DNA of 64,000 bases from Candidatus Dormiibacterota bacterium (GTDB lineage: Bacteria > Chloroflexota > Dormibacteria > Aeolococcales > Aeolococcaceae): NCBI GenBank assembly GCA_019245575.1, contig JAFARE010000029.1:4158-68157 (forward strand), written 5' to 3'. A program made the position numbers and the translations under genes. Within the stretch, counting starts at the first letter, position 1. Every line of letters begins with the position of its first letter. This document shows, one piece after another, positions 1-11,658 of the stretch. The notes beneath the pieces are model-generated. The model was not told the DNA's origin, ran no database searches, and worked only from the letters and a program-made list of their open reading frames with translations.

Positions 1-308
1 AGCGGCTGACCGCGGGGCGCACGGTCATCGTCATCTCGCATCGCCTGAGCACGCTCGGGCATGTGGACGAGATCGCCGTGCTCGAAGCAGGGCGCATCGT
101 CGAGCGCGGCACCTATCAGGAGCTGAAGCGCCTCGGAGGCAGCTTCGCGCATCTGCTCACCGAACAGAACCGCTACGCCGCCGAACCGATCATGCTCCCT
201 GCGCTGAACGGCCGAGCCGCCGCTGTGAACGGCGCCCGCGCAAACGGCAGCAAGCCGAGGTCCGTGGAGCTGCAGGGGCGTCGCGCGGCCGCGGAGAAGC
301 GCCGATGA
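1..308 (+). CDS. ABC transporter ATP-binding/permease (exporter type), 3' end only; 5' end outside the window
   Basis: Frame is open from base 3 and reads ...[52 protein letters not shown], the H-loop/C-terminal region of MsbA-like fused ABC exporters. Stop TGA at 306-308 overlaps the next start (ATGA). Confidence 0.8.
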
Positions 309-2602
309 CGGGCAGAACCGCCGGCCGGCCGCTCGCCGTCGTCACCGGTGCCGCGGGTTTCATCGGCAGCTGGCTCTCCGAGGCGTTGCTCGCCGCGGGT
401 TGGCACGTGCGCGGCGTCGACTCGCTGACGCGCGCGTATGACCCCGCAATGAAGCGCGCGAATGTCGCAGCGCTCGCGGCGCATCCCGCGTTCAGCTTTG
501 TGCAGGCAGACCTCGCGTGCACCGCCTCCGACGAGCTGCTGGGCGGGGCCGACGCCGTCATCCACCTTGCGGCCGAGCCGCGCTCCAGCAGCTCGTGGGG
601 CGCGAGCTTCAGCCGCTACATCGAGCGCAACGTGCTCGTCACCGAGCAGCTGCTCGACTCGGCCGCGGCCATGCACGTGTGGCGCTTCATCTACGCGTCC
701 AGCGCGTCCGTGTACGGCAGCAGCAGCGTTCCCCTCAGCGAGTCCGCCGTGCCCCATCCGGTCAACCCCTACGCCGCCAGCAAGCTCGCGGGAGAGCATG
801 TGGCGGGCGTGCACGCCTCGCAGGGGCTGCCGGTCGTGATCCTGCGCTACTTCTCCGTGTACGGGCCGCGTCAGCGACCGGACATGGCCGTGCACCAGTT
901 CGTCGCCGCGGCACTCGACCGCCGGCCGCTCACGATCGCCGGCTCTGGCGCGCAGGTGCGCGACATGACGTACGTGGGCGACGCGGTGGCGGCGACCGTC
1001 GCTGCGCTTCAGGCGCCGCTCGCGCCCGGATCCGTCATCAACGTCGCCGGCGGGCATCCCTTGACGATGCGGCAGCTCGCATACGAGGTTGCGGCGATCG
1101 CCGGCCATGCCTCGCCCGAGATCATCGAAGAGCCGGCGCGCGACGGCGACGTCATGCACTGTGTCGCGTCGACGGACCTGGCGCGGAGCGCCCTCGGCTG
1201 GACGCCCGTCACCGCGCTCTCCGAAGGGCTTCGGCGTCAGGTGGAATGGCAGGCGGAGCGACGCCGCGAGCTGCACCGCCAGGAGCACGCCACCGGGTCG
1301 CGCCCCATGCGCGCGCAACCGCGCGGGCCGAGGCTGATGATCTACTCGCAGGACGGGCTCGGCCTCGGGCACCTGCGCCGAGCCAGCTCCATCGCCTCGG
1401 CGTTCCTCGAGCGAGAGCCCAGCGGCTGGGTGCTCACGACGTCGGACTCACCGATGGGCACGCTGCTCCACGACGTGCACAACCACGACTATCTGAAGCT
1501 GCCGTCGATCGTCAAGAGCGGGCCGGGCGACTGGCATCCGCTGTCGTTCCCGCTCGATTTCGCGCACCTGCGCCAGCTGCGCACCCGCCTGATCCTCGAG
1601 GCGGCGAACGCCTTCGAACCCGATGTGCTGCTCGTCGACCACATGCCCCACGGCGCGATGGGCGAGATGCTTCCCGTGCTCGAGGCGCTGCGCGGCGAAT
1701 CGGCGCAGATCATCCTCGGCCTGCGCGACATCCTCGACGCGCCGGAGATCGTGCACCAGCGCTGGGAGCAGGAGGGCGCGTTCGAGGCGCTCTCGCGCTA
1801 CTACGACGGCGTGCTCGTCTACGGATCGCGCGAGGTCTTCGACGTGTGCCGGGAGTACGGGTGGCCCCAGCATCTCGCAGACCTCGTCCGCTACTGCGGC
1901 TTCATCTGCACCCCGCAGACACCGGAGGACGCGCGCCGCATCCGCGCGCGGCGGCTGGGGGGAGCCGACCGGGGCACGATGATCGCAGCGATGGCGGGCG
2001 GTGGCGCGGACGCCCATGAGCTGATGAGCGCCCTCCTCGACGCGCTGGCGCTCATTCACGCGGACCAGCCCTGCGTGCTCGAGATCGTGACGGGACCCTT
2101 CATGCCGGACCACCAGCGGCTCGACCTGAAACGCCGAGCCGAGTCGCTGCCGGTTCGCCTGCGGCGCATGGTGAGCGACCCGCTCAGCCGCGTCGCCGCC
2201 GCCGACCTGGTTGTTGCCATGGCCGGCTACAACACCACGATGGAGGTGCTGCGGCTCGGCACGCCGGCGCTGCTGGTGCCGCGGCGAGGCCCCAGCCAGG
2301 AGCAGCGCATGCGAGCCACGCGGTTCGCGGAGCTGGGCTGGGTGTCACAGCTCGATCCGGACGAGCTCACGCCGCGCACGCTCGCCGACGCGGTGCTCGA
2401 CGCGCTCGCCCGCCGCGAGCATCGCGCGCCCGCAATCGCGCCCGACCTGGGCGGCCTGCAGCGTGCAGCTGACCACCTGCAGCATGCGGCCAATCTCGCG
2501 CGACACGAGGCTGTCTTCGAGGTGGTCGGCGTCCCCGCTTCGCATCATCCGCACGACGCGGCGCCGGAGGCCGGCCTGAGCGACGCGCTGAGCGCGTCAT
2601 GA
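305..2602 (+). CDS. Fusion protein: N-terminal NAD-dependent sugar epimerase/dehydratase (about 330 aa) plus C-terminal GT-B glycosyltransferase of the GLGHLRR (COG4671/MurG-like) type
   Basis: Single 765-aa ORF. N-terminus has [13 protein letters not shown] (Rossmann), YASSASVYG and YAASKLAGE (SDR-epimerase YxxxK). The second half starts [23 protein letters not shown], typical of the predicted-glycosyltransferase family. No stop lies between the two halves. Confidence 0.7.
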
Positions 2603-3939
2603 CCGCCGCCCCGGCACCCCCCGGCGTCGTGCGCTCCGTCCGGCGCAAGCCGGGCAAGGCCGTGTTCATCCTGTACCGCCGTCACGACGGCGCCGTGCTC
2701 TGCCTCAACGTGGATGAGCGCGTCGCCGGCCCGGTCAGCAGCGGTGACATACCAGAGCTGGTGCACCGGCTGGAACACGCGGCGGGGAACGAGCCCTCCG
2801 CCGCCGAAGCAAGTGGCGTCTCCGTCCACGCTTTGCCCGAGGATCCCGGGCTGCCTGCGCTGCCCGCCGCATGGCATCCCACCGCAGGCGACGATCTCTG
2901 CGTCGGGCTGCAGGAGATGTTGAGCATCCGCGCTGAGCGTCGTGTGAACGTGGTGGACATCACCGCCATACCGCGGCACTACAAGCCGGGAAGCCGCTGC
3001 GTCATCGAGTACCGCTTGACGGTGCAGCACCCCGACGCCGCTTCGGTGGTCACGCAGGCGGTGTACGGCAAGCTGTTCGCCAAGCCTGCGCAGGCGCGCG
3101 ACATGGACGCTTCGTTGCGTCTCGTGGAGGCCGCATGCGAAGACGACGGCGCGGCGTTTCCGCGATGGAGCCCGAGGTCGCTCGGGGTGTGCGAGCCGCT
3201 GGGCATGTGCATCGTCGAGGCAGCTGGGACAAACGGCGACCTGCGCTCGGGCACGACCGTGCTGCGCCCGCACCGCGCCGCCCAAGCCGCACGCGCGCCA
3301 TGCATCCCCGTTGCCGAGCTCGAGCTCGCCGCCGGCGCACTGGTGCGGCTGCACACCTCGTCCATCGCGGCGGGCGGCCTGGAAGCGCGGAGCGCCCACT
3401 ACGAAGCCGAGCGCGCCGTGGAGCGGGGCGACCTCATTGCGGCGTATCACCCCGGTATGAGCGACGAGATTCACGCCGCGGCGCAGCGCGTGGCGGCGTC
3501 ACTCACCGAGCAGGCGGCGGCCGTCTCCCTCCCCTGTCACGGCAGCTACAAGCGCAGCCAGCTCGTGTACCCGTCCGACGGGACGGTCACGGTGGTGGAC
3601 TGGGATAGCATGTGCGCCGCCGACCCAGCACTCGACCTGGGTTGCTTCCTCGCCCACCTTCGCCCCGCCGGCATCTGGCAGGGGCGCCGCGCAGCACGCG
3701 CCTGGTTCGACGCCGCGTCATCGTTCTGGACCGACGCGTACGCGCGCGGCATGACGGCGCGGGGCGTGCCCCACGACGTCGTCGCGGGAATCGTCGGGCG
3801 CAGCGCGGCGTACGAGGCGGCCACGCTGCTCAAGATGGCGACGCGGCGGCTGCGCCGCCTCCAGAGTCCACGACCGCAGGAACTGCGCGCGACACTCGCC
3901 GCCGCGAGCTGCTGCCTCGCCGCCGATGCTGCCGCCTGA
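2599..3939 (+). CDS. Mak/APH-fold phosphotransferase-like protein, paralog 1 (HGS variant)
   Basis: 446 aa. C-terminal region CHGSYKRSQLVY...VVDWDSMCAADPALDLGCFLAHL aligns to the HGD-x4-Q-V catalytic loop and D-x-D metal loop of maltokinase/aminoglycoside-kinase-fold enzymes. Start overlaps the upstream stop (ATGA). Confidence 0.65.
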   Translation: MTAAPAPPGVVRSVRRKPGKAVFILYRRHDGAVLCLNVDERVAGPVSSGDIPELVHRLEHAAGNEPSAAEASGVSVHALPEDPGLPALPAAWHPTAGDDLCVGLQEMLSIRAERRVNVVDITAIPRHYKPGSRCVIEYRLTVQHPDAASVVTQAVYGKLFAKPAQARDMDASLRLVEAACEDDGAAFPRWSPRSLGVCEPLGMCIVEAAGTNGDLRSGTTVLRPHRAAQAARAPCIPVAELELAAGALVRLHTSSIAAGGLEARSAHYEAERAVERGDLIAAYHPGMSDEIHAAAQRVAASLTEQAAAVSLPCHGSYKRSQLVYPSDGTVTVVDWDSMCAADPALDLGCFLAHLRPAGIWQGRRAARAWFDAASSFWTDAYARGMTARGVPHDVVAGIVGRSAAYEAATLLKMATRRLRRLQSPRPQELRATLAAASCCLAADAAA

Positions 3940-5131
3940 GCTCGACCCTGCGCTCCCCGCCGCCGAAGCCGCGGTGGACACGGCAGCGGTTGCAGACGCG
4001 TTCCTGCGCTGCTGGCAGGGGCCCGGCCCGGCGCCCTCGGTGCGCGAGTGCGCGCCGGCATATGTGCGCTGGTGGCCGGGCGCCGAGCTGGTGGCGACCT
4101 TCACGCTGAAGCTGGAGGCTCCGTCTCCGCCGGGAGCGACGCTGATCAGCGTGTCGGTCCGCCCCGAGGGGACGCGTTACGCGCTGCTCGCCGCTGACAT
4201 CGGGCTGGACGGGCTTTCGCGGGCGACCGACCCCACGGCGATGACACCGGTGCTGCGCGACGCACTGCGGAGGGACATCCCCGCGTGCGCCATCACACCG
4301 GTGCGCTACCGCCCCATGCGGCGGTGTGTGCTGCGCTTTGACGTCGCGCCGGATGCGGCATCGGAAAGCGTCTACGGCAAGGTCCTTCGCGCCACTGAGG
4401 CGACAGCGCTGGCCGTCACGCTCCCGCTGCTGGGCGACATGGTCGCTCCGGTGCTGGCCACGGTGCCGCAGTGGGGCCTGATCATCCAGGCGAGCACCGG
4501 CGGCGACAGCCTGAACCGCGTGGGCAAGTCCGCCGCCACGCACTCCGACCTCGAGATGGTTGCCGGCGCCGCCCGGCTGCTCGCCCGCCTGCACGGCGCG
4601 TCCATCGACGCCGCTTCACGCACGCTGCAGGACGACGCGCATTCGCTGCTCGAGTTCGCGCCGGCGTGCGAGCGTTTCGCCCCCGGCGTGGCGGCGCGCC
4701 TTCGCGACGCCGCCGGACGGGTCGGATCGTTCCCCTCCAGCGACGACCTGGTGCCGAGCCACGGCGCATTCCGCCTCGACCAGGTGCACATCACGCAACG
4801 GGGCCCGGTGCTCATCGACGTCGACTCCTTCTGCGCGTCGGAGCGCGAGCGCGACCTGGGCAATCTCTTTGCCTACCTGTGCTGGCGCGCGATCCGGCGG
4901 CCGGACGCCGGCGACGCCGTCGACAGCGTCCGGACTCAGTTCCTGTCCGCGTACGAGCGCGCCGCGTCGCGACGCGTCGACGCCGAGCGGCTGCGTCTGT
5001 ATGAGGCGGTGTCGCTCCTCAAGATCGCGGGACGGCGATACCCGCGGCTGAAGACCGCCGAGTGGCCGCTCGTGCCGCAGCTGATCGACGCGGCAATCAC
5101 GCTGCTCGCCCCCGCGCCGGTGGCGCGATGA
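3926..5131 (+). CDS. Mak/APH-fold phosphotransferase-like protein, paralog 2 (HGA variant)
   Basis: 401 aa. Motifs VPSHGAFRLDQVHI...LIDVDSFCASERERDLGNLFAYL. 14-nt overlap with paralog 1. Confidence 0.65.
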   Translation: MLPPELDPALPAAEAAVDTAAVADAFLRCWQGPGPAPSVRECAPAYVRWWPGAELVATFTLKLEAPSPPGATLISVSVRPEGTRYALLAADIGLDGLSRATDPTAMTPVLRDALRRDIPACAITPVRYRPMRRCVLRFDVAPDAASESVYGKVLRATEATALAVTLPLLGDMVAPVLATVPQWGLIIQASTGGDSLNRVGKSAATHSDLEMVAGAARLLARLHGASIDAASRTLQDDAHSLLEFAPACERFAPGVAARLRDAAGRVGSFPSSDDLVPSHGAFRLDQVHITQRGPVLIDVDSFCASERERDLGNLFAYLCWRAIRRPDAGDAVDSVRTQFLSAYERAASRRVDAERLRLYEAVSLLKIAGRRYPRLKTAEWPLVPQLIDAAITLLAPAPVAR

Positions 5132-6111
5132 GGCCGGCCCACACCGCCGAGGGCGCGCTGGACGCACTCCCCCGCTGCGTCGATGCCGCATACGTGTCCG
5201 CGCGCCTCGCCGAGGCAGGCGCCGGCGGCACCGTCCTGGCTGCGGATGTCGTGTCCATCGCGCCGGGGAAGCGAGCTGTGGTGCGCTACGCGGTTCGCTC
5301 CGCAGACGGCTCGGACGTCACATACATCGGCAAGCTCTACGCGGACAGCGCGCGCGCGCAGCGAGCGCACGACGTCATGGCGGCGGTGCACTCCGCGATC
5401 ACCCGCCATGACGGCCTCACCTCGCCGCATCCGGTGGTGCTGCTGGGCGACCTCGGGCTGCTGCTGCAATCCGCGGTGGCCGGCGCCACGCTCGACCGGG
5501 TCCCACCGCCGGAACGTGTCGCTGCTGCGCGCGGCGCCGGGCGATGGCTGGCCGCGTTGCACGGGTCGAGGCTGAAGCCGGATCGCGCCGTGAACCCGGA
5601 TTCGGAGGCGCGCAAGACGGCTGAGCGCGCAGCGCGGATCGCTGCATCCGACACGCGGCTGGCCGCCGCCGCCGCGCAGCTGCACCGCGCGGTTACGCAC
5701 GCGACCATCGATCCCCCGGCGTCTGGCGTGCCACTGCATCGAGACTTTCACTATCAGCACGTCGTCGTCGCGGGCGACACGGTCGCCGCGATCGACCTCG
5801 ACGAGGTGCGCGGCGGCGAAGCGGCAATCGACGTCGCCCACTTCTGCGCGTACCTCCACCTCCTTGTGATGCGCGAGGCAGGTGAGCAGGATCAGAGCGG
5901 CGCACTGGAGACGGCATTCCTCGGCGGGTATGCAGGCGATGCCGCACGCGCGCTCGACGCCCGCGAACGCGTCCATTTCGCCAACACGTGCCTCAAGCTC
6001 GCCGACCAGATCGTGCGCGGACGCGGCCCGGCGCCGGCGCCGGTCGGAGCGGATCGCACGCGTGAGGCAGCGTTCCTCCTGGAGGACGGCCGGAGATGCC
6101 TGGAGAGCTGA
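5128..6111 (+). CDS. Mak/APH-fold phosphotransferase-like protein, paralog 3 (HRD variant)
   Basis: About 327 aa, taken from the internal ATG at 5128 that overlaps the upstream stop (ATGA). Motifs LHRDFHYQHVVV...AIDLDEVRGGEAAIDVAHFCAYL. Confidence 0.6.
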   Translation: MRPAHTAEGALDALPRCVDAAYVSARLAEAGAGGTVLAADVVSIAPGKRAVVRYAVRSADGSDVTYIGKLYADSARAQRAHDVMAAVHSAITRHDGLTSPHPVVLLGDLGLLLQSAVAGATLDRVPPPERVAAARGAGRWLAALHGSRLKPDRAVNPDSEARKTAERAARIAASDTRLAAAAAQLHRAVTHATIDPPASGVPLHRDFHYQHVVVAGDTVAAIDLDEVRGGEAAIDVAHFCAYLHLLVMREAGEQDQSGALETAFLGGYAGDAARALDARERVHFANTCLKLADQIVRGRGPAPAPVGADRTREAAFLLEDGRRCLES

Positions 6112-7340
6112 GGGTCGCCTACATCCTGCGCAGCTGGCCGCGGCTGTCACAGACGTTCATCCTCAACGAGGTGCTCGAGCTCGAGCGCGCCGGCGTGAGC
6201 GTGACGCTGTTCCCGCTCGCCCGCGCCGATGACGCGCTGGTGCAGCCGCAGGTCGCCGACGTCCGCGCCACGGTACGCTACCTGGACGCGCGCGCCCTCG
6301 CACGAGCGCGCATGCACCTCGCAGTCGCGCTCGACACGCCTGGCCGCTACCTGGCGACTCTCGTCTTCGTGCTCGCCCACCGCGAGCTGCGCGGGCACTA
6401 CACCAAGAGCAACGCGCTGCAGGCATTCGACGCGGCCGTGCAGGCAGCCTGGCACCTGCGCGCACGCGGCTCGGTGCGGTGCACCCACGTGCACGCGCAC
6501 TTCGCGCACGACCCCGCGTTCGTCGGCGTGCTGGTGCGGCGTCTCACGGGCCTCTCGTTCACCTTCACGGCGCACGCGCGCGACCTGTACCAGATCCCCA
6601 GGGTCGCGCTGCAGGGCCGGGCGCGCGAAGCCGAGGCGGTGGTCACGTGCTGCGCGAGCAACGCGCGTTACATCGAGGACGTGATCCGTGACACGGCTCC
6701 CGTCGAGCTCGTGTACCACGGTGTGGATCTGCGCCGCTTCCATCCCGCGGACCTGCCGGCACGCGGCAGCATCCCGCACATCGTCTCGGTGGGACGGCTC
6801 ATCCCCAAGAAGGGCTTCGACGACCTGCTTCGCGCGTGCGCGGTGCTCCATCGCAAGGGCATTGCCTTCAGCTGCGAGGTGTTCGGCGAGGGCCCGCTTC
6901 GCGGCCGCCTCGAGGTGCTGCGCGACGAGCTGGGGCTCGCCGGGGTGGTGCGCTTCTGCGGGGCGCGCACGCAGCGGGAGCTCCTCGACGCGTACACGTC
7001 AGCGGACATCTTCGCGCTCACGCCGTGCGTGACCGAGGACGGCGACCGTGACGGGGTGCCCAACGTGCTCCTCGAGGCCATGGCGTGCGGGCTGCCGGTC
7101 GTGGTGACGCGTGCCGGCGGTGTCGAGGAGGTGGTGCGCCACGAGGTCGACGGTCTCGTGGCCGATGCGCGCAGCCCGGAACAGGTCGCGCGGTGCCTCG
7201 AGCTGCTGCTCACGGACGCGGCGCTGCGCTCGCGGCTGGGCGCAGGCGCCCTGAACGCGGCACAGCGCTTTGACGGGCGCGATGCCGCACGGCGGCTGGT
7301 CGCGCTCTTCAGCCACACCGCACCGGCACCTGCGCCATGA
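6096..7340 (+). CDS. Glycosyltransferase family 4 (GT-B, group 1)
   Basis: 414 aa. GRLIPKKGFDDLLRA and EDGDRDGVPNVLLEAMACGLPVVVTRAGGVEEVV match the EX7E-type GT4 signature. Confidence 0.8.
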   Translation: MPGELRVAYILRSWPRLSQTFILNEVLELERAGVSVTLFPLARADDALVQPQVADVRATVRYLDARALARARMHLAVALDTPGRYLATLVFVLAHRELRGHYTKSNALQAFDAAVQAAWHLRARGSVRCTHVHAHFAHDPAFVGVLVRRLTGLSFTFTAHARDLYQIPRVALQGRAREAEAVVTCCASNARYIEDVIRDTAPVELVYHGVDLRRFHPADLPARGSIPHIVSVGRLIPKKGFDDLLRACAVLHRKGIAFSCEVFGEGPLRGRLEVLRDELGLAGVVRFCGARTQRELLDAYTSADIFALTPCVTEDGDRDGVPNVLLEAMACGLPVVVTRAGGVEEVVRHEVDGLVADARSPEQVARCLELLLTDAALRSRLGAGALNAAQRFDGRDAARRLVALFSHTAPAPAP

Positions 7341-8692
7341 GCGTCTCGCTCGCTCAGGTGGCCGCACCCCAGGAGAACGCCGGCCTGCACGGCGACCTTC
7401 CGCACCTCGAGGCAGCCCTCGACCCGGAGCGGATGCGCGACGAGCTGGACGCGCTCCTCTTCGCGGGCACCGGCACGACCCTCCTGCGCTGCGGACGGCC
7501 GAAGCCGGAGGTCGGCGACGTGGGCTGCTCCATCCACTACCCGCTCCTGGTGCGGGACGCGTCCGGCACGGAGAGCCAGCGGCTGGCGCTCGCCGTGATG
7601 CTCCCTGGCGAGGGCGACGCCGAGCACTTTCATGCGCGGGAGCTGAGCCCGATCGCGGCGCGGCAACCGGCAGCCCCGGCAGGTGGGCCGCGCGCCACCG
7701 GCGTGCTCTCACACCTCCGGCTGGCGGTGAGCCTCTTCCCCGTCAGCGCAGCGCACCCCACGCTCGTGCTCGCTGCGGATCGCGAACTGGCCACCGCAGC
7801 GCTGCGCCCGCTGCTCCAGGGCAGCGACGCGGCCGTCACCGACGTTGTGCTGGTGCGGCTGCGCCGCTCACGGGGATGTGTGCTCCGGTACGAGCTCGAT
7901 CACGGCGCTCGCACCGCGGTCTTCGGCAAGGTCGGGTACCCCGCTGCCGCCGCAGGCGTCCAGGCGGCCCTCGACGCGCTGCGCGTCTCCGACGGCGCGA
8001 GCCGGGGTTCGGTAGTCTTTCCTCGCGGATTGGGGCGCTCGGCGGAGCTCGACGAGACGTTCGTCGAGGAGCTTCCAGGGAGACCGCCGGAACTTGAGCA
8101 GGAGACTGAACGTGCGCGAGTGGTCGACGTCGCCGCAGCCGTCGCAGCGGTTCTGCACGCGTCCGGCCCCGGCGCCGGGGACGAGCACGGGCTCGACGAC
8201 GAGGTCGCGCGCGCGGCGCGGCCGGTGCAGATGGTCGCGCGTTACGACGCCGGCCTGGCCGGATCGCTGCTCGCCGTGCTGAACGGGGTGACGCGCCAGG
8301 CGGCGCAGGCGCCCGCGGGCGAGCCCGTCTTCTCGCACGGCAGCTTCGCGCCGTCACAGCTGATGTTCGACGGCGACCGAACGGGTCTCCTCGACTTCGA
8401 GCGCGTCTGCCGGGCGGAGCCGGGGTTCGACCTGGGACGCTTCCTCGCGTCGCTGCGGACGTCCGTCTCACGCAAGGGTGCGAGTGACGCCGACGCGCTC
8501 GCGCAGCGCTTTCTCAGCGGCTACGTCGCCGCAGGCGGCAGTGCCGGCGCTGCGCAGCGCGCGTCGCTGTACGAGTGCGCCGCGCTCATCCGCACAGTGG
8601 CGCACAGCTGGCTGCAGCTGAAGACGTCCCGCCTGCAGCACGCTCTCGCAGTCCTCGAGGCGCGCCGCGAGTCGCTCGGTCTGGCCGGATGA
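7337..8692 (+). CDS. Mak/APH-fold phosphotransferase-like protein, paralog 4 (HGS variant)
   Basis: 451 aa. Motifs VFSHGSFAPSQLMF...LLDFERVCRAEPGFDLGRFLASL. ATGA overlap with the GT4 stop. Confidence 0.65.
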   Translation: MSVSLAQVAAPQENAGLHGDLPHLEAALDPERMRDELDALLFAGTGTTLLRCGRPKPEVGDVGCSIHYPLLVRDASGTESQRLALAVMLPGEGDAEHFHARELSPIAARQPAAPAGGPRATGVLSHLRLAVSLFPVSAAHPTLVLAADRELATAALRPLLQGSDAAVTDVVLVRLRRSRGCVLRYELDHGARTAVFGKVGYPAAAAGVQAALDALRVSDGASRGSVVFPRGLGRSAELDETFVEELPGRPPELEQETERARVVDVAAAVAAVLHASGPGAGDEHGLDDEVARAARPVQMVARYDAGLAGSLLAVLNGVTRQAAQAPAGEPVFSHGSFAPSQLMFDGDRTGLLDFERVCRAEPGFDLGRFLASLRTSVSRKGASDADALAQRFLSGYVAAGGSAGAAQRASLYECAALIRTVAHSWLQLKTSRLQHALAVLEARRESLGLAG

Positions 8693-9528
8693 AGAAGAAG
8701 CCGCTCCGCTTCTGCTTCATTGTGGAGGCGCCGTACCGGAACAGCCGACTGCCCATGGCGGTCGTCGAGCAGCTGCGCGCGTCGGGCCACGAGTGCAGCG
8801 TCATCGAGCCGCAGGTTGCGGTGGCGAACGTCAACGACCTCGCCGGCGACCGCGACTTCGACGCCATCGTGCTGCGCACCGTCTCCAACGGACCCGGGCT
8901 GAGCCTGCTGCACGCGCTGGGGGCGTGCGGTGTCACGACCATCAACGACGCGGAGGCCGTGCTCCGGGTGCGCGACAAGGTGGTCGTGGCCGCCATCGCG
9001 CGCGCGCATGGAATCCCGTTTCCGGACACGTACTTCCTGGCCGAGGCACGGCTCGTGGAGCAGGTGCCGGAACGGCTCTTCCCGCTGGTGGTGAAGCCCA
9101 GCTTCGGCGGGTTCGGCCGTAACATCCGCCTGATCCGCACGCCCCAGGAGGCGATGTCATTCGGCTCCAACGGCGGCCCGCACCACTGGGTGGCGCAGCC
9201 CTGGCTGCCCAACCTCGGATACGACGTGAAGCTGTACAACACGGGTCGCAGCATCCACGCGGTGCGCCGCCGCTCCTCGCTGCTGGGGGGCGCCGACGGC
9301 GACCGCGAGGTGATCCCACTCACCGACGCGATGCGCGATCTCGCGGAGCGCATCGGCGCAGCGTTCCAGCTGGAGATCTACGGGGCCGATGTGGTCGACA
9401 GCACCGAGGGCTGGATCGTCGTCGACGTCAACGACTTTCCGAGCTTCAAGATGATCGACGAGGCGCCGGAAGAGCTGGCGCGGTCCATCGTCGACATCAC
9501 GCGCCGCCGCCTCGCGCCGATCCGATGA
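8689..9528 (+). CDS. ATP-grasp domain ligase (RimK-like)
   Basis: About 279 aa from MKKKPLRF (ATGA overlap with the upstream stop). ATP-grasp signatures LVVKPSFGGFGRNIRLI and ...GADVVDSTEGWIVVDVNDFP. Confidence 0.65.
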   Translation: MKKKPLRFCFIVEAPYRNSRLPMAVVEQLRASGHECSVIEPQVAVANVNDLAGDRDFDAIVLRTVSNGPGLSLLHALGACGVTTINDAEAVLRVRDKVVVAAIARAHGIPFPDTYFLAEARLVEQVPERLFPLVVKPSFGGFGRNIRLIRTPQEAMSFGSNGGPHHWVAQPWLPNLGYDVKLYNTGRSIHAVRRRSSLLGGADGDREVIPLTDAMRDLAERIGAAFQLEIYGADVVDSTEGWIVVDVNDFPSFKMIDEAPEELARSIVDITRRRLAPIR

Positions 9529-10847
9529 TCCCCGCGCTGCCCGCGGCGGAGCTGGAGCCGCTCTGCAACCCAGCGCTTGCAGCACGCCTTCCCACACTCG
9601 CCGCCGCCATGGACGCAGCGACGATGGCGCAGCACCTGCAGCGGGCGCTCTTCTCCGGCTCGCCGTCGCGCGTCATTGCGTGCGGCCGGCCGCGTGCCGT
9701 GCTTGACGGCGACAGCTGCGCGCTGCAGTACCCGGTCACGCTGCTGGGGAGCGACGGCGCCGCGCTGCAGCTTCCCGTCCTTGCCGAGGTCTTCGCCACA
9801 GCAGAGGCCGCGCGGGACATGCACGACACGCTGCTCGGCCCCTTGAGCGAGGAGTGGGGCCGCATCGACATTGCCCAGCTGACGTGGAGCGCCGCGCTCG
9901 GCGAGCTGCGCATGGCGTGCAGCGTCTTCCCGGTCAGCGCGGCCCTGCCCCAGCTGGTGCGCGTCCTGGCGCCGGGATACCTCGACGCCCTGCTGCAGTC
10001 TTCGCTGCGCGACACGGAGATCCGCGTGGAGTCCGATGAGCTCGTGGTCTTGCGCCGCACCCGCGGCTGCGTGCTGCGCGTGCGCATCGAGGGACGAGAG
10101 CCACGCACCGCATATGCCAAGGTCGGGTACGCCGCCTACGGAGGCGCTGCCGCGGATGCGCTCGCGCAGCTGCGGAGCGGGCCGGTCACGCCTGCGCTCC
10201 GCCTGCCCGAGGTGCTCGGACGTGACGATGCGCTCGACGTCACGGTGCTGGCGGAGCTGCCAGGCACCCGCCCAGATCTGCGCACAGATGCCGAGCAGAT
10301 GGTCGGCGCGGCGGCGCGTTGCGCCGCCCTGCTGCACGCGTCACGCGTCGAGGGAGCGCCGCATCGCACGCTGCATGACGAGGTTGCGCGAGCGAGCGAC
10401 GCCGTGGACCGTGTGGCCCCCTATGCGCCGGCGGTGAGCTCGTGGCTGCGCGACGTGCTGCACGACGCGGAGTCCGCCGCGGGTGGCGGAGAAGAGGCGC
10501 CGGTGTTCTGCCACGGCGACCTCGCGCCGTCACAGGTGCTGCTGCACGAAGGCGTGCCCGCCATCCTCGACTTCGACAAGTGCTGCAGCGCCGAGCCCGC
10601 GCTGGACCTCGGCCGCTACCTCGCGTATCTCCGATTCGCGCTGGCCAAAGCCGGCGACCCGCGATCCGATCCGCTGGCGAAGGGATTCCTGCGCACATAC
10701 GAAACAGCCGGTGGGACGGTCCCACCGGCCGCTCGTCTGGCCGCCTACGAGACGGTTGCGCTGGTGCGCATGGCCGCTCGCAGCTGGCTGCAGCTCAAGC
10801 CGCAGCGGCTGCGACTGGCCTGCGACGTCATCGCACGGAGGTTGTGA
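9525..10847 (+). CDS. Mak/APH-fold phosphotransferase-like protein, paralog 5 (canonical HGD)
   Basis: 440 aa. VFCHGDLAPSQVLL...ILDFDKCCSAEPALDLGRYLAYL has the complete HGD-x4-QV catalytic loop and DFD, the closest to the maltokinase pattern. ATGA overlap with the ATP-grasp stop. Confidence 0.7.
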   Translation: MIPALPAAELEPLCNPALAARLPTLAAAMDAATMAQHLQRALFSGSPSRVIACGRPRAVLDGDSCALQYPVTLLGSDGAALQLPVLAEVFATAEAARDMHDTLLGPLSEEWGRIDIAQLTWSAALGELRMACSVFPVSAALPQLVRVLAPGYLDALLQSSLRDTEIRVESDELVVLRRTRGCVLRVRIEGREPRTAYAKVGYAAYGGAAADALAQLRSGPVTPALRLPEVLGRDDALDVTVLAELPGTRPDLRTDAEQMVGAAARCAALLHASRVEGAPHRTLHDEVARASDAVDRVAPYAPAVSSWLRDVLHDAESAAGGGEEAPVFCHGDLAPSQVLLHEGVPAILDFDKCCSAEPALDLGRYLAYLRFALAKAGDPRSDPLAKGFLRTYETAGGTVPPAARLAAYETVALVRMAARSWLQLKPQRLRLACDVIARRL

Positions 10848-11658
10848 ACGTCGTCCCGCCGCCCAGTCCGGCGCACTGGCCGTCGGTCTCACTGACGATG
10901 TTCGGCTCCGAACCGAAGTCGTCGTTCACCGCGGGCGTGCCCATGTCCCACTCGTCATTGCGGCAGGTGAGCTCGTCGCCGATCTGGTTCGATTCGAGCT
11001 CGATGAACTCGTTGACCACGTCGACGTTCTTCACCGACACCGAGCCGCCGATCGTGTTGTACGAGATCTCCACGCGGTTGACGTCATCGCTGTTGAGCAC
11101 CCAGACGTCGCCGCTGATCATGTTGGGCGACTCGCAGGTCAGGTCGGGGTCGTTGTTGCCGCCGCCCGAGTAGTCGTAGTCCTCGGTCTCGCCGTTGGCG
11201 ACGCCCTCCGCGAGCGTCGGCTCGCCGATGACCCACGTCCCGCTCTTCAGGTTCTTGAGGATCACGTCGCCGCCCACGGTGGAACCGCAGATGAAGCCGC
11301 CGAAGGCGCCGCCGGCCGTGCCGTCGACGATGAAGTCACCGCCGATCGAAGTGCTGGCCTCGATGTTCACCTGCGTCGGGTTCTTGGCGAAGAGCGAGCC
11401 GCCGATGCTGGTGCCATCGCGGGTGAACAGCTTTGCCGCCTTGTCCACCTTGACATCGCCGCTGATCGACCAGCCGTGGATGTGACACACCGCACCGGGC
11501 GGCACCTCCAGGTTCCCGGTCACGTTGCCGTTGACCGGGAAGTTCGTGTCGTCGCACTTGGTCACGGTGGCCGCGGCCGCGCGCGGGCCGCTCAATGCCA
11601 ATCCCCCGGCGACGACAAGAATCGATGCCGCGCCGAACGCGGCCTTCCTCACCCTCAT
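10828..11658 (-). CDS. Secreted repeat protein (signal peptide; about 20-aa G-G-[DS]-x-x-[VI] repeats, beta-helix/putative-adhesin-like)
   Basis: 276 aa. N-terminal MRVRKAAFGAASILVVAGGLALSG is signal-like. Repeats SISGDVKVD, SIGGSLFA, SIGGDFIVDG, TVGGDVILKN, MISGDVWVLN, TIGGSVSVKN. The 3' end overlaps paralog 5 convergently by 20 nt. Confidence 0.6.
   Translation of the reverse strand: MRVRKAAFGAASILVVAGGLALSGPRAAAATVTKCDDTNFPVNGNVTGNLEVPPGAVCHIHGWSISGDVKVDKAAKLFTRDGTSIGGSLFAKNPTQVNIEASTSIGGDFIVDGTAGGAFGGFICGSTVGGDVILKNLKSGTWVIGEPTLAEGVANGETEDYDYSGGGNNDPDLTCESPNMISGDVWVLNSDDVNRVEISYNTIGGSVSVKNVDVVNEFIELESNQIGDELTCRNDEWDMGTPAVNDDFGSEPNIVSETDGQCAGLGGGTTFTTSVR

Follow-up and report, generated by a model that had tools for sequence, protein, structure and literature searches.

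In a 64,000-nucleotide stretch of contig JAFARE010000029.1 (hereafter the window, about 71% G+C), which comes from a soil metagenome-assembled genome (MAG) of Candidatus Dormibacteraeota, nine genes of the + strand between bases 3 and 10847 read as one translationally coupled operon. Their order is ATP-binding cassette (ABC) exporter, a fusion of an epimerase with a glycosyltransferase (epimerase-GT), the kinase-fold paralogs par1, par2 and par3, a family 4 glycosyltransferase (GT4), par4, an ATP-grasp ligase and par5. Three of the five paralogs, par1, par2 and par4, carry Ser or Ala in place of the catalytic Asp, and the comparison of their families suggests that these Asp-less proteins are non-phosphorylating partner subunits of a sugar-modifying and export system present in several phyla.

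In enzymes of the aminoglycoside phosphotransferase (APH) and Mak fold, the Asp of the H-G-D motif is the catalytic base. When coordinates and translations were re-checked, the five open reading frames (ORFs) and their loop motifs all agreed with the original prediction, as did the downstream D-x-[DE] metal loop, which reads DWD, DVD, DLD, DFE and DFD from par1 to par5 (Table 1). The signature composed of HxDxxxx[N/Q], DxD or DFE and the beta3 Lys is complete in par5 (with Lys198, Gln337 and D349-F-D351), and it is also present in par3 save for a His at the Asn/Gln position (His211, with D223-L-D225 and an intact Asp). The other three paralogs fail at the Asp only: par1 retains Lys158, Gln321 and D334-W-D336, par2 retains Lys152, Arg283, Gln286 and D298-V-D300, and par4 retains Lys198, Gln341 and D353-F-E355. 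Because it takes two substitutions to reach AGC or GCA from the Asp codons GAC/GAT, and identical paralog proteins are present in independent NCBI, ENA and Logan assemblies, the Ser and Ala residues are not sequencing errors. The par3 protein is also peculiar in having no ~130-aa N-terminal cap, which is found in the other four paralogs.

All five paralogs have the fold or the sequence signature of the choline/aminoglycoside kinases (CAK/APH). The Pfam model PF01636 (cutoff of 23.2 bits) matches par1, par4 and par5 with 41.1, 47.7 and 48.5 bits, respectively. The par2 and par3 proteins of the window do not match it alone, but their orthologs do, and the profiles of both families match APH structures (E=5e-11 for par2 and 1e-8 for par3). 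The AlphaFold2 (AF2) models of par2 and par4 are confident (predicted local distance difference test, pLDDT, of 94.2 and 92.4), and a bilobal kinase fold was found. Foldseek ranked Mak (4u94) first for par2, whereas par4 came closest to choline kinase/PsiK; these are varied CAK kinases, so the fold is the general CAK/APH one and not Mak specifically. A specific membership of Mak was rejected: no maltokinase or TreS-C-terminal NCBIfam model was matched at E<=0.1, the PDB profile matches to Mak were weak (E 6e-5 to 0.05), and TreS/GlgE are absent among all nine genes of the operon. Moreover, none of the curated family models for Mak, LxmK, CotS or the APH resistance types was reached by the paralogs.

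Whether the Ser and Ala positions correspond to the catalytic base can be read from profile alignments to solved structures. The par2 profile, built on 43 orthologs, places its ‘sHGafRagq’ on the ‘CHGDLCPDN’ of APH(3')-VIII (4h05, E=5e-11), with Lys falling on Lys, Gln on Asn, and the first Asp of DxD on the Mg-binding Asp. The profile of the par1 family aligns ‘aHGsyKpsq’ on the ‘CHCDVNHNN’ of CcrZ (7s3l) and the ‘AHCDLRFDQ’ of LxmK (9dk1), whereas par4 was placed through a joint alignment with its HGD relatives, the HGD consensus of the par4/par5 profile lying on the HGD of the corramycin phosphotransferase (8agy) and of 4h05. These alignments bear out the homology that the original prediction had assumed: the Ser and Ala of par1, par2 and par4 are the homologs of the catalytic-loop Asp. 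In Mak, this Asp (Asp305 of the HGD) is the putative base, and Gln310 and Asp322 (of DFE) are Mg ligands (PMC4306142), while in the bacterial spore kinases (BSK) the equivalent Asp has been described as needed for activity (PMC2860764). An Asp nearby could compensate for the loss, a possibility raised with the prediction itself. At the sequence level, a comparison of alignment columns over seven paralog groups gave no acidic residue whose conservation is restricted to the Asp-less ones. The Asp beside the Gln in par2 of the window (HGAFRLDQ) is unconserved and is Gly in most orthologs, and the par2 group is also without a Glu (column 289 of the hidden Markov model, HMM) retained by every other group.

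A genome scan led to 62 related loci, which are spread over Chloroflexota, Dormibacterota and many Actinomycetota; among the carriers are cultured Actinopolymorpha, Phycicoccus, Terrabacter, Blastococcus and Geodermatophilus. The 280 kinase-like domains of these loci were sorted into seven groups (G1 to G7). The par2 group (G6, HG[A/S/G]) is Asp-less in all of its 43 members (20 with Ala, 14 with Ser and 9 with Gly), and its conservation reaches 96% for the Lys, 96% for the His, 100% for the Gly, 96% for the Arg at +2, 93% for the Gln and 100/93% for the DxD. Two more sequences that group with G6, from a second cluster type, have AGD, with the loop His missing. The par1 group (G5, HG[S/G]) is equally Asp-less (12/12), and the group shared by par4 and par5 (G7) is made up of 50 HGD domains and 4 HGS domains, the latter of the par4 type. 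With six added database members, the par4 type is HGS in 10/10 and forms a single clade, sister to HGD proteins, which therefore points to one Asp-to-Ser change after duplication of the par5 type. The Asp is kept throughout the par3 group (G1, H[KR]DFHxxH, 47/47) and in two groups with no member in the window, G2 (HGDxKxx[N/H], 42/42) and G4 (HGDCKPSQF, 36/36), whereas a third such group, G3 (HHDFRPAQ), is Asp-less in 9 of its 51 members. Other peculiarities of these loops are the His that replaces the Mg-binding Asn/Gln in 45 of the 47 par3-type domains, together with an additional conserved His at +4, the likeness of the G2 loop (HGDxKxxN) to that of eukaryotic protein kinases (ePK), and the absence of the beta3 Lys in 6/36 of G4.

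The same picture was obtained from an exhaustive search with the par2-family profile, where 1602 cluster representatives reached E<=1e-30. Of the 149 best ones, 127 are Asp-less (88 HGA, 27 HGS, 11 HGG and 1 HCG), and 19 HGD proteins make up a separate, lower-scoring ‘HGDFYDDQ’ subfamily. The proteins of this sister family (P0205-P0233) have two domains, with the Asp kept in the first one, and may preserve the ancestral form of the par2-par3 tandem described below. Across the Asp-less families, the beta3 Lys, His, Gln and DxD are conserved at 93-100%, and the basic residue two positions past the lost Asp is near-invariant (Arg in G6, Lys in G5). Counting the 9/51 cases in G3, the Asp has been lost independently at least four times, always to a small uncharged residue, and par1, par2 and par4 belong to three separate lineages, each of them fixed for Ser, Ala or Gly at this position. 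Such conservation shows a loss that is fixed and under selection in the three families, and not decay. Since the nucleotide and metal site is retained, these proteins are not simply dead scaffolds either. If a pseudokinase is defined as a kinase fold without at least one canonical catalytic residue, par1, par2 and par4 would count as such by their residues.

The five paralogs belong to an unnamed family of gene clusters that is conserved in Dormibacterota, Chloroflexota and Actinomycetota, and in almost every locus the epimerase-GT fusion and the GT4 belong to the operon as well. Two loci (L001 and L002) follow the full order of the window, but their first kinase position is occupied by a G2 gene and not by the par1 type; in fact, par1 of the window is not an ortholog of the first kinase gene elsewhere, which is G2 with an intact Asp. 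A third locus (L003) has the segment from GT4 to par5 ordered as in the window. L006 and L024 are without a par4 copy, the ATP-grasp gene of L006 lying on the opposite strand beside the exporter, and L004 contains only the part from par2 to par4/5, with one HGD gene of the par4/par5 type and the exporter on the opposite strand. In the Actinomycetota versions the ATP-grasp gene is missing, and there are paralogs of G2, G4 and G3, which are absent from the window. Six kinase-like domains are found in the loci of this phylum (L012-L064).

The original prediction also proposed that the Asp-less paralogs are partners that heteromerise with the two intact kinases, a proposal that finds support for par2 with par3 but not for par1 and par4. 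In 30 of the 43 loci having both, one ORF without internal stops spans the par2-type and the par3-type domain; in that of Phycicoccus sp. Soil748 (L033:3221-5473), Pfam detects two APH stretches. Moreover, 64 of the 149 best database representatives hold at least two kinase-like domains, the later one being nearly always HKD/HRD. Heteromerisation is thus supported, from gene fusions, only for par2 with par3. The par5-type domain has a fusion of its own, with the ABC exporter as the N-terminal part, in 20 of 54 cases, which occur in Actinomycetota. In Phycicoccus sp. Soil748 (L033:7976-11410) this is an ABC_membrane+ABC_tran+APH protein of ~1140 aa, with like fusions in 19 other loci, and its ABC part is MsbA/HepA-like, yet under every curated cutoff.

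The company of par1 and par4 is a different one. Genes of the par1 type adjoin RimK-like ATP-grasp genes in L010, L022, L035, L070 and L071, and the par4 type is confined to four loci, those with an ATP-grasp gene between two G7 genes, so a partnership with the two intact kinases is not indicated for either. One module (L070:5347-12262) is composed of a lipoprotein-like beta-propeller, a RimK-like ATP-grasp, two par1-type genes (one HGG, one HGS) as well as an ABC exporter, and it contains no Asp-bearing kinase and no glycosyltransferase; a role of the par1 type as a partner of intact kinases is therefore too simple. In MAGs labelled Gammaproteobacteria, genes of the par1 family stand directly after an outer-membrane beta-barrel gene (OMP_b-brl_4; L068:5515-9551) or after OMP_b-brl_4 and OEP/TolC-like genes (L072:1288-6884), the second locus having two GT4 genes and another APH gene downstream. 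A strict rule, where the ATP-grasp would always go with an Asp-less partner, was rejected, with L006 as an exception.

Our preferred reading of these data, to which we would give an even chance, is that the Asp-less proteins can still bind nucleotide and metal without phosphorylating hydroxyl groups in the ordinary manner, and that they serve a membrane-associated assembly line as its partner or adaptor subunits. In such an assembly line, the epimerase-GT fusion and the GT4 would make a glycoside whose acceptor is a lipid or a small molecule, par3 and par5 would phosphorylate this glycoside, the ATP-grasp would attach an amino acid to the phosphorylated glycoside, and the MsbA/HepA-like ABC exporter would carry the product out. 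The par2 protein would be the obligate partner of par3, its predicted active counterpart, as a pseudokinase-kinase pair that forms one polypeptide in most Actinomycetota, and par1 and par4 may work with the RimK-like ligase and the exporter, perhaps as proteins that hold the substrate or present it. Several observations weigh against this proposal. The whole nucleotide/Mg site is strictly conserved over phylum-level distances, beyond what a pure scaffold needs, and the pseudokinases of the BSK family and TvaE, an inactive phosphotransferase homolog, have lost several motifs (PMC2860764; bioRxiv 10.1101/2020.08.21.260521). Without an Asp-bearing kinase in L070, the Asp-less par1-type proteins of this module must act alone, and the ATP-grasp gene of L006 has no par1- or par4-type partner.

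The strict conservation of the ATP site and the L070 module also favour the main rival to the partner reading, where the Asp-less paralogs would be active enzymes with an altered chemistry, an option that the original prediction also named. They would pass a phosphate (or nucleotidyl) group on to an acceptor for which no general base is required, such as a phosphate or carboxylate on a sugar or amino-acid intermediate. SelO, SidJ and POMK, all of them active kinase-fold enzymes formerly called pseudokinases, offer an analogy. We regard this second explanation as possible, though clearly less probable than the first. It would account for the near-invariant Lys, His, Gln, DxD and +2 basic residue of G6 and G5, for replacements that are always Ala, Ser or Gly and that remove a negative charge next to the gamma-phosphate, and for the Asp-less proteins being the sole kinase-fold genes in L070, and the association with ATP-grasp genes suggests carboxylate or phosphate chemistry in the pathway. 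However, the interchange of Ala, Ser and Gly shows that the replacing residue has no catalytic role of its own, G6 has lost the Glu at column 289, and par2 being fused to an intact kinase is in keeping with a regulatory pair. A more far-reaching version, which we consider unlikely, would see in these proteins a conserved class of base-less CAK-fold enzymes that phosphorylate or nucleotidylate an anionic group together with the RimK-like ligase, within a multi-phylum machine of five to six kinase-fold subunits that makes and exports a phosphorylated, amino-acylated glycoconjugate. This machine, of which the operon would give a first view, would include the natural fusions of a pseudokinase with a kinase and of an ABC exporter with a kinase.

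It is quite improbable that the operon tailors and exports a ribosomal peptide, with paralogs comparable to the LxmK/TvaC kinases and the TvaE/LxmX leader-peptide binders. All five paralogs give weak matches to the NCBIfam model of LxmK (NF038156), but at 19.6-30.2 bits for a cutoff of 315, and LxmK and TvaE are among their structural neighbours. ABC exporters and ATP-grasp ligases are present in peptide natural-product clusters; the ATP-grasp here is nevertheless RimK/LysX-like and not a microviridin-type ligase. A pair of active and inactive paralogs is documented for TvaC/TvaE (bioRxiv 10.1101/2020.08.21.260521), but the operon has no HopA1-like lyase, precursor gene or intergenic gap, the upstream contexts are unconserved in related loci, and the conserved core is one of two glycosyltransferases and an NDP-sugar epimerase.

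A slimmer chance still is left for the Asp-less paralogs as conventional kinases, either substrate-assisted or with another base, or for the five genes as independent antibiotic-resistance kinases that happen to be clustered. The nearest solved relatives in sequence are the corramycin, APH(3')-VIII, capreomycin/viomycin and macrolide phosphotransferases, and the operon includes an exporter and a macrolide-GT-like domain. However, the Asp is regarded as required in the CAK fold (PMC2860764; PMC4306142), no NCBIfam resistance model was reached, and independent resistance genes are a misfit with fixed synteny, overlaps, fusions and the co-inheritance of five to six paralogs in three phyla. Finally, decay or assembly artefacts, for which the missing Asp is the only argument, have a negligible probability and are refuted by conservation, given the full-length ORFs (G+C at third codon positions, GC3, of 0.85-0.90), identical proteins in independent assemblies, orthologs at 30-50% identity which share 8-49 invariant columns each, and the confident AF2 models of par2 and par4. 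A defence system, hinted at by weak Pfam matches to GT4-conflict and TCAD9, was rejected because there were no PADLOC matches.

The genes of the operon overlap at every junction, either as ATGA stop/start overlaps (at 305, 2599, 5128, 7337, 8689 and 9525) or by 14-16 nt (at 3926 and 6096), and the NCBI gene calls are concordant with their starts (Table 1). An in-frame GTG first occurs at 5062 in par3, yet its start is set at 5128 by the NCBI call and by the ATGA overlap. The window begins inside the ABC exporter gene, whose TGA (306-308) overlaps the ATG (305-307) of the epimerase-GT fusion, so the operon reaches upstream both of the 2599-10847 span of the original prediction and of the window itself; that span also holds two non-kinase genes, for the GT4 and the ATP-grasp. 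Proteins of the window are 100% identical to NCBI entries, and part of the window is the same as contig JAFAWF010000257.1 of GCA_019242035.1. For the epimerase-GT protein, with Pfam matches to Epimerase (4e-51) and Glyco_tran_28_C (4e-11) and distant YjiC/OleD/MurG-like matches in the PDB, no database record was found, and the NCBI contig stops inside this gene.

Table 1. Genes of the operon in the window and catalytic motifs of the five kinase-fold paralogs (positions in the window; SDR, short-chain dehydrogenase/reductase; NDP, nucleoside diphosphate).
Feature	Position	Strand	Length (aa)	Catalytic loop	Residue at Asp position (codon)	beta3 motif	Metal motif	Basis
ABC exporter, 3' end (ABC_tran C-terminus)	3-308	+						Translation; full syntenic genes in L001/L002 are ABC_membrane+ABC_tran
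SDR NDP-sugar epimerase/dehydratase-family domain + GT1/GT28-type glycosyltransferase fusion	305-2602	+	765					Pfam
par1, kinase-fold, HGS	2599-3939	+	446	HGSYKRSQ (3538-3561)	Ser316 (AGC, 3544-3546)	VYGK	VDWD	Pfam APH, family G5
par2, kinase-fold, HGA	3926-5131	+	401	HGAFRLDQ (4760-4783)	Ala281 (GCA, 4766-4768)	VYGK	IDVD	Family G6 profile, AF2 model
par3, kinase core, HRD	5128-6111	+	327	HRDFHYQH	Asp206	IGK	IDLD	Family G1 profile
GT4 glycosyltransferase (EpsE/WcaL-like)	6096-7340	+						Domain models
par4, kinase-fold, HGS	7337-8692	+	451	HGSFAPSQ (8336-8359)	Ser336 (AGC, 8342-8344)	FGK	LDFE	Pfam APH, family G7, AF2 model
RimK/LysX-type ATP-grasp ligase	8689-9528	+	279					Domain models
par5, kinase-fold, HGD, full catalytic set	9525-10847	+	440	HGDLAPSQ	Asp332	YAK	LDFD	Pfam APH, family G7

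Downstream, a convergent ORF of 276 aa on the - strand (10828-11658) overlaps the end of par5 by 20 nt and has a strong coding signal (GC3 of 0.92); it is without a Pfam match and without a conserved counterpart in the related loci. The remaining genes of the window (thiolase, aminotransferase, L,D-transpeptidase, MurJ-like flippase, thiamine pyrophosphate (TPP) enzyme and hybrid histidine kinase) showed no link with the operon. The upstream regions of L006 and L040 are unrelated, and no conserved precursor or regulator was found there.

While eukaryotic pseudokinases are well studied, bacterial ones are poorly so, and this operon offers a natural and experimentally tractable set of them, some of whose hosts, for example Phycicoccus sp. 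Soil748, Actinopolymorpha rutila DSM 18448 and Terrabacter, are in culture. The operon could reveal the role of bacterial kinase folds that are base-less but keep an intact ATP site, be they regulators, substrate holders or enzymes with a new chemistry, and it indicates an unnamed pathway, for a glycoconjugate of the envelope or a secreted one, common to Dormibacterota, Chloroflexota and many soil Actinomycetota. We found no literature on a phosphotransferase and glycosyltransferase cluster of Dormibacterota, and none for PDB 8JSU either.

Among known systems, the bacterial spore kinases CotS, CotI/YtaA, YutH and YsxE, which have the CAK fold, resemble the operon in their several co-existing paralogs, some of which have independently lost the catalytic Asp (D239 in YtaA) and are predicted pseudokinases, and in a genomic tie to glycosyltransferases and nucleotide-sugar enzymes (PMC2860764), comparable to the epimerase-GT and GT4 found here. 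However, the BSK pseudokinases lose further catalytic motifs, whereas the paralogs of the operon lose the Asp only, and the BSK are spore-coat proteins of endospore formers, in contrast to an operon with an ABC exporter and an ATP-grasp in three phyla. The CotS model TIGR02906 gives 15.3 bits for par5, against a cutoff of 172.7, and no match for the other paralogs.

A second parallel comes from the thioamitide and class V lanthipeptide systems, where LxmK and TvaE are sequence and structural neighbours of the operon paralogs. In the former, the active APH-fold kinase TvaC is co-encoded with its inactive homolog TvaE, a binder of the leader peptide and also of a partner enzyme (bioRxiv 10.1101/2020.08.21.260521), and LxmK works as a heteromer, the LxmK-LxmY heterodimer (PMC12141560). 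Both systems differ from the operon, which is without lyase, precursor peptide and decarboxylase, and TvaE is also without the conserved ATP-site residues that par1, par2 and par4 retain. Mak and the actinobacterial glucosamine kinase share with the operon paralogs the grammar of their motifs (PMC4306142) and perhaps, par3 apart, an N-terminal extension ahead of the kinase core, but the operon differs from the Mak system in having no TreS/GlgE, no match to a maltokinase model and three paralogs without the Asp.

For the pathway as a whole, a working analogy is with WbdD and Wzm/Wzt in the O-antigen assembly of E. coli O9a, where a kinase-fold enzyme phosphorylates a GT4-built glycan in an ABC-transporter-dependent system at the cytoplasmic membrane (PMC3482155). 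This analogy, drawn from gene content, covers the glycosyltransferases, kinases and ABC exporter as well as the ABC-kinase fusions; WbdD differs in being an ePK-type kinase fused to a methyltransferase, with another type of ABC transporter, no multiple paralogs and no Asp-less members. In eukaryotes, JAK JH2-JH1, FAM20A-FAM20C and STRAD-LKB1 each combine, as a pair or as a fusion, a nucleotide-binding pseudokinase with an active paralog under its regulation. These belong to another branch of the kinase superfamily, and a regulation of par3 by par2 is only inferred, but the natural par2-par3 tandem would be alike in its arrangement. Asp-less paralogs of the CAK fold are already known from the BSK pseudokinases and from TvaE/LxmX; what is distinct here is that the base alone is lost, in three independent events within one operon, together with the natural par2-par3 and ABC-par5 fusions and the recurrent link to a RimK-like ligase.

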